Below, piece after piece: positions 7,779 to 16,382 of a DNA stretch of 26,667 nucleotides. Both the position numbers and the translations under genes were made by a program. Source of the DNA: a virus (taxonomy: Duplodnaviria > Caudoviricetes); IMG/VR virus record IMGVR_UViG_3300032239_000979, positions 1 to 26,667 of that record, one strand, 5' to 3'. Positions within the stretch are counted from its first letter, which is position 1, and each line of letters opens with the position of its first letter. The notes below the pieces were generated by a model. That model was not told the origin of the DNA. It did not search any database and saw only the letters and a program-made list of their open reading frames with translations.

Positions 7779-7867
7779 GGGCACGGCTACCTTTAGCGGG
7801 GGAAAAGGCGATTCGTTACCGCCCTGCCGATGCTTCTTTCAGTAACGCGAACCTAGAACGTAAGGTT
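7779..7867 (+). ncRNA. Candidate cis-regulatory structured RNA upstream of the replication initiator
   Basis: Outer stem GGGCACGGC / GCCGATGCTT encloses two hairpins. Loop CGTTAC is complementary to downstream GTAACG (7842-7847). An AACCT/AGGTT hairpin covers the RBS. Confidence 0.55.
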
Positions 7868-13053: not shown

Positions 13054-13229
13054 CCGAAGACCAAAAGTGGCAGGTTATGAGCGCCCTGATACCGCCAGCG
13101 TGTTTGGCCGCAATCATCATAAGGATGATGGACGGAACCATCAGCAGAGCGGGCGCGTTAATCGTGTTCGACACCATCTACGAGCAAAACAAGGCCAAAT
13201 TGTCCGCAGCAATTGAGGAGCAGATATGA
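13050..13229 (+). CDS. Hypothetical protein (59 aa)
   Basis: AAGGAG RBS before ATG 13050. Confidence 0.65.
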   Translation: MTEDQKWQVMSALIPPACLAAIIIRMMDGTISRAGALIVFDTIYEQNKAKLSAAIEEQI

Positions 13230-13708
13230 AAATGGACAATGAAATCTTAAATTTGCCTATATCAACGCGTTGCTATTACGCTTTATATCGAAACGACATT
13301 CAAAATTTGGCCGAACTCACCAAAATGTCAAAACGCGATTTATTGAAATTGCCCACCTTTGGTAAAAAGTGTTTAGAAGAAATTGTTGAAGCATTGGGAG
13401 AAATAGGACTTTCACTCAGTCCGGGCCCCGAAGACAAAAAGCAATGGGAAGAATTAGGCGAACGCGTTAATAAACAAGTGAAAGGATTTTTGGCCATGAA
13501 AGAAGACACCACACCCATCGACCCAACATGGATGCAAAAGACCGGCGGCTTTGCCCGCGACATGACCTTGCGTGACCACTACGCTGGGCTGGCTTTGCAG
13601 GCGTATTGTTCAGATCCCGATTGGCGGCAAGACATGATGCCGGATGCAACCGCCCGTGCTGCATATGCACAAGCAGACGCAATGCTGAAAGCAAGGGAGG
13701 CAAAATGA
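13226..13708 (+). CDS. RNA polymerase alpha-CTD-like domain fused to a MTLRD..A...ADAML phage domain
   Basis: LPISTRCYYALYRNDI....EL.....DLLKLPTFGKKCLEEIVEAL...GLSL matches the alpha-CTD pattern (LTVRSANCL...LLKTPNLGKKSLTEI). Confidence 0.8.
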   Translation: MKMDNEILNLPISTRCYYALYRNDIQNLAELTKMSKRDLLKLPTFGKKCLEEIVEALGEIGLSLSPGPEDKKQWEELGERVNKQVKGFLAMKEDTTPIDPTWMQKTGGFARDMTLRDHYAGLALQAYCSDPDWRQDMMPDATARAAYAQADAMLKAREAK

Positions 13709-15526: not shown

Positions 15527-15540
15527 CTTCGTATTATAAT
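15522..15540 (+). promoter_or_regulatory. Promoter/operator with a consensus -10, upstream of the ncRNA and terS
   Basis: AATAACTTCGTATTATAAT with TATAAT at 15535-15540. Confidence 0.6.
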
Positions 15541-15546
15541 ACCCGC

Positions 15547-15645
15547 GCCCCTGAAAAATGGGGCTAACACGCATGAGGATTGGTTTCGGCATGTTGCTGT
15601 GATAGACGGAGCCGCAAGAAAAAGCCAGTCTTCAGCCGTGTTGGT
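15547..15645 (+). ncRNA. boxB-like hairpin plus a long irregular stem-loop
   Basis: GCCCC-TGAAAAAT-GGGGC, then GCTAACACGCATGAGGATTGGTT pairing with AGCCAGTCTTCAGCCGTGTTGGT with a 2x2 internal loop. Confidence 0.6.
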
Positions 15646-15741
15646 GTAGTTCAGAGAATCCACCACAAGGTGGGCCGAGGCATCGGCGGGAAGAACAGCC
15701 CCGGCAGGGGTATGCGCTGGGTTCGAGGCCAGCCGCCAACA
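15640..15741 (+). ncRNA. tRNA-like RNA lacking an anticodon loop, with an expanded D-loop
   Basis: Acceptor stem GTTGGTG/CGCCAAC+A, TA linker, D-stem GTTC/GAAC, arm GCCCC-GGCA-GGGGT, T-arm GCTGG-GTTCGAGG-CCAGC. Confidence 0.7.
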
Positions 15742-15779
15742 ACTTGTTACACTGGAGCGAATAGGAATAAGGATTAACC

Positions 15780-16382
15780 ATGCCAGAAACTACCGCCAAG
15801 CCATCCAAACGGCCCGAGACGCTCGAAATCGAGCCGGTTGAGGTCAACCTACCAACCATCACCCAAAACGCGCCTGTGGCCCCGAAAAAGAAACTAGGCC
15901 GCCCATCCAAATACAGCCCAGAACTCGCAGCAGAGATTGCCCAACGCCTGAGCGCAGGAGAGCCGCTACGGAAAATCTGTAGGGATGAGCACATGCCGCA
16001 TTGGACGGTGATGTATGACTGGTTGGCAAAAGACAAAGATCTTTACCTACAGGTCGCGCGCGCTCGCGAAGCCGGGTATGAGGCTTTGGCTGAGGAAGCA
16101 TTGGAGATTGCCGACGAGCGGCCAGAGGTGAATGAGCTGATTGACAAGAAGACCGGCGAGGTCCTGAGCATTGATCTGAGCAGCGCCTACATCTCGTGGC
16201 AGAAGAACCGCATCGAGACCCGACTAAAGTTGCTGGCTTGCTGGAGCCCGGCTAAGTATGGCAACCGCACCGTGGTGGCTGGTGACGACAAGAACCCGCT
16301 GGTGGTCGAGGCCAGCTTTGACGTATTCGGCGAGGTCCTGAAGCACTTGTCCATGGCCAAGCTCGATGGGCAACCTAGCTGA
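15780..16382 (+). CDS. terS: Terminase small subunit
   Basis: GRPSKYSPELA.EI..RL..GE.LRKIC...MP....YDWL...ARARE...ALEIAD...P.KYG; directly upstream of terL. Confidence 0.85.
   Translation: MPETTAKPSKRPETLEIEPVEVNLPTITQNAPVAPKKKLGRPSKYSPELAAEIAQRLSAGEPLRKICRDEHMPHWTVMYDWLAKDKDLYLQVARAREAGYEALAEEALEIADERPEVNELIDKKTGEVLSIDLSSAYISWQKNRIETRLKLLACWSPAKYGNRTVVAGDDKNPLVVEASFDVFGEVLKHLSMAKLDGQPS

Follow-up and report, generated by a model that had tools for sequence, protein, structure and literature searches.

The window, by which we mean the whole stretch of DNA analysed (26,667 nucleotides), is a 26.7-kb phage record that carries replication and recombination genes followed by terS, terL and a portal gene. 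The terminase small subunit gene (15780..16382, plus strand; phrog_1482, E 1e-32; PF20901) is a neighbour that lies outside of the RNA system described here. Upstream of it, on the same strand, are a short G+C 5' hairpin (15547..15564, read from the sequence; L002-L004 and L006 have another hairpin at this position), a long stem with variable cargo, termed unit A (15563..15645), and a tRNA-fold RNA, termed unit B (15640..15741). A candidate -10 box for the non-coding unit, TATAAT, was read at 15535..15540 (plus strand) with no recognisable -35 box, and a promoter scan of the window returned 0 sigma-70 sites. Between unit B and terS lies a putative functional element, the extended -10-like motif TG-N-TACACT (15745..15753, plus strand), which is kept in relatives whatever the cargo. 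A coding reading of the region was rejected: Pfam gave no match for either of two overlapping ORFs (15580-15777, 15632-16036), and homologues differ by indels of 1-2 nt.

Fold, alignments and covariation all describe unit B as an anticodon-less tRNA-fold RNA with a two-hairpin insertion in the D-loop. The acceptor stem (15640-46/15734-40) has 7 bp including one U.G pair and is followed by the discriminator A73 (15741), and U-1 could pair with A73 to give an 8-bp acceptor stem. After the U8-A9 linker, a 4-bp D-stem (15649-52/15693-96) encloses a D-loop of 40 nt, which contains hairpin 1 (15660..15673, plus strand), with a covarying stem and a loop free in sequence and length, and hairpin 2 (15674..15687, plus strand), with a GGCA loop at 15679-15682, and which keeps a GG near its end. 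The anticodon-position arm (15698..15711, plus strand) has a 5-bp stem and again a GGCA loop (15703-15706); a variable region of 4 nt and the T-arm (15716..15733, plus strand; fold and homologue alignment) complete the body, and CCA is not encoded. All of these parts lie where the initial annotation had placed them, with two corrections. The GGCA loop had been labelled a GNRA tetraloop, which is wrong because its third base is C where a purine is required. The T-arm does contain the reported TTCGA, read as a UUCGA loop, but it is not canonical, since it has one extra G and thus either an 8-nt loop or a 7-nt loop plus one bulged G; this form is invariant among 11 of 11 close homologues. In addition, it had been overlooked that the 5' strand of unit B is shared with a second hairpin unit upstream, unit A.

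The whole 102-nt element folds with an MFE of -46.6 kcal/mol (z -3.25; 1 of 200 shuffles equally stable), and the reverse strand of 15640-15741 folds more weakly (z -1.78). It should be noted that the D-stem is open in the centroid structure of the window copy, so that its support is covariation (C-G in nine sequences, U-A in nine). The ARAGORN and Rfam checks proposed at the outset were both run: no gene was called at the window copy, and it had no Rfam match at E<=5. Rfam scans of the window, the array loci and the homologues returned no family for unit A, for the unit B scaffold or for the mimic beyond weak tRNA matches; the RF00005 gathering score was passed by four of nine distant homologues and not by the window copy.

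Pattern scans of viral and metagenome contigs recovered close copies and nine distant sequences (two of 28 matches of the first scan and four of 84 of the metagenome scan were real). Among 11 close copies, 341 of 341 cells are paired, three pairs have changed on both sides, and each one-sided change involves a G.U or U.G form. Covariation in relatives had been set beforehand as a test, and it was found in an alignment of 18 sequences, nine close and nine distant, with a mean column identity of 66%: 95.9% of 392 cells are paired, 13 of 22 pairs show compensatory, two-sided changes, including six of the seven acceptor pairs, and none of 500 shuffles matched this. The shuffle control is blind to relatedness, and in a second control with slid partners pairing dropped to 33-58%. 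All 18 sequences share U8, A9, G10, A14, the D-loop GG, A21, U54, U55, C56 and A58, and all have a D-loop of 40-54 nt. At position 15, 12 sequences have G and six have A, with C or U at position 48 to match (by eye), which reads as a tertiary swap between G15-C48 and A15-U48. Covariation and the kept core bases thus bear out the earlier proposal of a non-decoding mimic under selection rather than a tRNA in decay. Judged from these alignments, the mimic represents a family of tRNA-fold RNAs that is uncatalogued and has no entry in Rfam.

The loops behave differently from one another. In hairpin 1, two of six pairs have changed on both sides, and its loop ranges from 4 to >12 nt in distant homologues. 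Hairpin 2 has GGCA in 18 of 18 sequences, and this loop lay outside the search pattern by which the nine distant copies were found, whereas GGCA in the anticodon arm of the distant copies was forced by that pattern. In close homologues the anticodon-arm stem covaries, and its loop has 4-6 nt and five different sequences; the 7-nt anticodon loop with U33 is absent, 4-6-nt loops being found instead. CCA is encoded after position 73 neither in the window copy nor in the nine distant copies. A control scan for short-armed tRNA bodies gave an estimated ~980 viral stretches, of which the best 121 included 102 distinct ones; their loops are highly diverse, and GGCA occurs in about one of the 102. Therefore, anticodon-less mimics are common in phages, and the GGCA hairpin is specific to the family of the mimic. 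One recurring family of short-armed bodies with an AGGA loop was noted in L524-L644. The anticodon-position loops all read N-G-C, and the hairpin 2 loop equals the loop of E. coli tRNA-Ala(GGC) (alaX) minus U33. An origin of the loops from alanine tRNA is possible on this sequence likeness, and it was not singled out by host tRNA scoring, in which the 15 host tRNAs that best matched the RNA model were ten Thr, three Ala, one Val and one Ile.

Neither the window unit nor L450 had a BLAST match among cultured phages, and when the RNA model was run against 151 bacterial genomes, the matches listed (25 candidates per genome) were all of 72-74 nt, and the mimic was not among them. Of 19 matches in a genome scan, five were real; these lie without exception on MAG contigs with lengths of 1.8-3.4 kb (four Burkholderiales, one Flavobacterium), so that the host assignment is weak. 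No published description of the mimic or its arrays was found, in a literature coverage that left out most subscription journals, and the available text of PMC12197685, PMC13192938 and PMC5371410 contains nothing on the family.

Unit A consists of a long stem with a 2x2 internal loop and a variable cargo (fold z -5.61, 0 of 200 shuffles), and its outer helix uses the 5' acceptor strand of the mimic. The cargo (15584-15624) has 11 nt in common with a tRNA-like cargo of Klebsiella phage Magnus (L353 1094-1219). A predicted RNase III site lies in the stem, whose register matches an RNase III consensus that its own source terms weak (PMC4357697). From this consensus, cuts are predicted at 15571|15572 and 15638|15639, which would leave a 2-nt 3' overhang, release a 67-nt product (15572..15638, plus strand; fold z -3.57) and leave the mimic with a 1-nt leader. 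Conservation was judged on 172 A stems, of which 64 were not forced by the scan pattern; positions -3 to -1 and part of the 5' strand are fixed by the anchors. In the 64 unforced stems, the distal box reads U-A at -12 (57 stems) and U.G at -11 (54 stems), -6 is G-C and -5 is U-A in 64 of 64, and -7 and -8 covary freely. Position -5 is U-A in all 172 stems, with no G-C, and the helix has 13 bp, about one helical turn. A UA/UG distal box is described as optimal for RNase III (PMC1540722); at positions -9 and -4 the A stem does not follow the E. coli consensus.

Since the two units share a strand, they would exclude each other until the cut. Among 131 distinct A+B pairs, the acceptor is predicted to be paired in 13 precursors versus 122 of 131 molecules after the predicted cut, a thermodynamic prediction made on fragments with 10 nt of upstream sequence. 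Release of the mimic by RNase III is probable. The suggestion that the mimic might be an RNase P/Z processing element has to be revised, the predicted signal being the upstream RNase III stem and not primarily RNase P or Z.

The junction of units A and B occurs in an estimated ~920 viral stretches, of which the best 120 were examined. In the arrays two fixed elements take turns, a long stem (unit A) and a 7-bp acceptor stem (unit B), and within each of them lies an exchanged RNA cargo. They run B-A-B-A and have their own promoter and terminator in the clear cases L079 (TTGACA-17-TAAAAT, several units, terminator) and L178; in a -10 box test across arrays, 29 of 61 had a box versus 22.8 in shuffled sequences. 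Parsing of 214 loci yielded 169 distinct A units, which form 97 families. Of the B units, likewise 169, those kept fall into 116 families, a rough count, as B-unit ends were parsed greedily and some were cut too short. The mimic cargo is the largest B family owing to the targeted scans, with three occurrences in 120 unbiased loci; it was found in 14 distinct contexts, behind nine different A units or none, and the A cargo of the window stands ahead of five different B units. Within the family of the seed, unit A was present in one of 401 genomes, that of the seed itself, and was not found in the other 400. The mimic is, as far as sequence comparison can tell, one exchangeable cassette of a larger array system, and we regard the conclusions on the fold and on the cassette arrays as highly probable.

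Most array cargoes are not tRNA-like. ARAGORN called three of 32 distinct tRNA-like B units (Stop, unknown, and Thr with a non-standard loop), and none of the called units has a normal anticodon loop. Compact mimics of 71-73 nt with 6-nt anticodon loops and variable middle bases make up the B units of L181, L195, L199, L216, L227 and L236. Distant copies of the mimic in L457, L444, L467 and L487 lie inside other long flanking stems, which represent a third and a fourth frame type. Real tRNA genes follow some arrays, among them tRNA-Met(CAU)-type genes with an odd D-arm directly after the arrays of L008 (1392-1466), L080, L087, L132 and L157, and an abiF RNA follows one (L110 817-853, 55 bits, directly after the B unit and followed by a run of T). 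In L062, L079, L097, L110 and L353-L356, a B cargo has complementary D-like and T-like loops (CUGAU/AUCAG) that might form a Watson-Crick elbow; this cargo is common to uncultured arrays and >200 cultured phages.

Comparison with known systems places the mimic among the tRNA mimics, within an RNase III-punctuated phage RNA operon. With tRNA (RF00005) it shares the acceptor, D, anticodon-position and T arms and the tertiary core bases, and it differs in having no 7-nt anticodon loop, a two-hairpin D-loop of 40-54 nt and no encoded CCA, and in the close group also by the extra base of the T-arm. The C4/CI RNAs of P1, P7 and P4 are phage RNAs of tRNA-like fold with variable loops that are cut from a precursor and act as antisense RNAs. 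The mimic, unlike these, has true D- and T-loop tertiary bases, and it has no Rfam match to C4/CI, no complementary target above shuffles in three records and no integrase in 10. A tRNA elbow without a decoding anticodon is also found in YrlA (a bacterial Y RNA), the tRNA-like domain of tmRNA and mascRNA; the mimic has no Rfam match to these families and, to our knowledge, none of them has a two-hairpin D-loop or occurs in shuffled arrays.

Judged by its layout, the same arrangement is present in the lambda late leader and in the dicBF operon of E. coli K-12. In the lambda late leader, just past tR', A and B overlap in this order as in the arrays, but the scaffold has another sequence and the cargo is not tRNA-like. 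Applied to this leader, the RNase III consensus predicts a 61-nt product (+210 to +270), and the RNase III cuts of the leader are reported at +209/+270. A 1988 paper on RNase III sites in the lambda late transcript is cited in PMC7547250. LPR2 is a lytic lambda RNA of ~63 nt near 6S RNA (10.1101/2024.10.31.621285); it fits the predicted late-leader product in size and is a candidate for it. In the dicBF non-coding region of the E. coli Qin prophage, stems stand in an array-like layout with DicF among them (PMC5069750), but the scaffold letters are others, DicF is an Hfq-bound base-pairing sRNA and not a tRNA mimic, and the available text of that source describes no array of exchangeable cassettes. 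Abundant late phage RNAs among tRNA genes include PAK_P3 sRNA2, which has a T-loop-like stretch (PMC4933390), and the band C and D RNAs of T4; inspection of sRNA2 by eye showed no A/B scaffold and no fold like that of the mimic. One B cargo of the arrays matches >200 cultured phage records. In these phages a long stem and a short-stem unit overlap as they do in the arrays, although the long stem is of different sequence, and tRNA genes and tmRNA-tag-like pieces lie next to them. The latter were seen directly 5' of long-stem units in enterobacterial phages (L353 857-1058, L355 870-1059; sub-threshold tmRNA matches), and stretches in L358 and L360 resemble tmRNA tag-coding sequence by eye.

What the family has kept is the complete elbow of a tRNA, an end that is protected, and small GGCA loops, one or two in number. 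The best explanation might be that the mimic is an RNase III-released, non-decoding decoy for a host protein that targets tRNA, a prediction that concerns the class of protein only and that we consider quite possible without being confident of it. The array would be transcribed as a single RNA, in which unit A would hold the 5' acceptor strand of the mimic until it is cut by RNase III; thereafter the acceptor would close and exonucleases would trim the 3' trailer. The mature RNA would then display a tRNA elbow together with one or two truncated, anticodon-like GGCA loops, and loops and elbow may bind a tRNA-cleaving or tRNA-modifying defence or toxin protein of the host, by which the mimic would be poorly cut or used; this is the weakest step of the model. 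The extra base of the T-arm and the missing anticodon would bar the mimic from ribosomes. The genomic context offers hints in the same direction, namely tRNA genes and an abiF RNA after arrays and the few ARAGORN calls (3/32). Nevertheless, the hairpin 2 loop is conserved, by the alignment, beyond the needs of a pure shape decoy, which argues against that version of the model, and since short-armed tRNA bodies are common (~980 stretches) and their loops diverse, some of these could be drifting.

The main rival, which we consider rather unlikely, assumes the same processing but takes the tRNA body for a mere chassis that displays GGCA hairpins, in two copies, to a dimeric RNA-binding protein of host or phage unrelated to tRNA. 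It would explain why the loop of hairpin 2 is GGCA in every sequence although all stems change, and it agrees with the rarity of GGCA among short-armed bodies, which shows that this loop is not a default cap, and with other B units that carry long anticodon-arm inserts in an intact tRNA body. Two copies of the displayed loop are harder to defend, as the anticodon-arm loop drifts among five sequences in close homologues and, in the distant copies, had to be GGCA for the search pattern to find them, and a chassis would hardly account for retention of the full tertiary core, including the 15-48 swap.

An improbable reading is that of a base-pairing RNA, in which the loops would act as antisense on phage or host RNA, like C4/CI or DicF, or in which GGCA, being complementary to UGCC, would pair with U33-G-C-C of tRNA-Gly much as a T-box specifier does. 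The presence of DicF, a base-pairing sRNA, among the similarly arranged stems of dicBF (PMC5069750) speaks in its favour. Against it, the RNA lacks a long single-stranded seed, loops of 4 nt pair poorly, and the longest match to the own phage genome was 11 nt in three of three records, equal to shuffles; this test covered phage targets in three phage records, two of which are partial genomes. A C4/CI antisense immunity RNA in particular finds no support, with no target above shuffles in the three records, no Rfam match and no tyrosine integrase in 10 of 10 near-complete records.

The initial annotation had placed the element directly upstream of terS and named a packaging-associated RNA as one possibility, and a cis-acting processing or packaging element for terS or the late transcript would fit its position 38 nt before terS in the window, its occurrence before terS in L032 and the fact that 12 of 47 tested genes downstream of arrays encode terminase subunits. 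These comprise ten terS and two terL by comparison with PHROGs, and the rest are varied or unassigned (47 of 76 candidate ORFs were tested, repeats and doubtful frames being left out). In close relatives, however, the slot holds other cargo or nothing: several of the 11 terS relatives compared have the same flanks with unrelated inserts, in L001, whose terS is 97% identical, the slot is taken by another anticodon-less mimic, and in L007 it is empty. The mimic is also found in other frames, some copies face a convergent gene, and some arrays have their own terminator. Such scattered contexts, 14 in all, make a role in packaging or in the control of terS unlikely and do not uphold a particular link to terS, and the cis-acting reading as a whole is very improbable. 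The mimic is thus more general than first reported, and it is neither a tRNA nor a terS element.

Just as improbable is a tRNA in decay, or a module of almost no selective effect that has spread because the repeated stems recombine. Cargo turnover is indeed very high, truncated cargoes occur in L186 and L229, and short-armed bodies are common, but drift of this kind would not be expected to leave six of seven acceptor pairs compensated, a swap at 15-48 and an unchanged hairpin 2 loop at 66% mean column identity. DNA-level cassettes of the integron type, with unit A as an attC-type hairpin, almost certainly do not apply: attC sites likewise end in GTT...AAC and form long, imperfect hairpins whose tops vary, but the absence of a tyrosine integrase from 10 of 10 records that are at least 90% complete removes this reading, the GTT core is not invariant (the pentamer that gives GTT is often altered, to CCAAG in 33, CCATC in 10 and CCTAC in 10 of 131), and G.U pairs and T-loops point to a plus-strand RNA.

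An uncatalogued tRNA-fold RNA family with covariation at the tertiary level is thus found inside a large, shuffling system of non-coding cassettes, which would carry a built-in cut-to-fold switch as predicted above. As the layout recurs in lambda and in dicBF of E. coli K-12, laboratory strains are suited to testing the processing model, and the cassette model could account for orphan phage small RNAs, for example lambda LPR2. If the cargoes are decoys, RNA counter-defence would have in them a reservoir that is new, and the frame would be a ready means of obtaining several stable, structured RNAs per transcript. A further step, which we regard as doubtful, would be to see the arrays as a phage arsenal of RNA decoys, a counterpart of anti-CRISPR and anti-defence clusters, in which universal RNase III and acceptor-stem frames would allow hundreds of small folded RNAs to be recombined and each to be set free as a stable molecule, the twin-GGCA mimic would neutralise a specific tRNA-targeting immune nuclease, and the lambda late leader would be a reduced member.

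Two further features of the window deserve mention. An int-alpA RNA above the gathering score lies at 7781-7847 (plus strand), ahead of a replication gene, and a sub-threshold copy of this RNA was seen after the array in L053. At 13226-13708 (plus strand), the phage encodes a protein that matches PF03118, the C-terminal domain of RNA polymerase alpha (E 6e-14).
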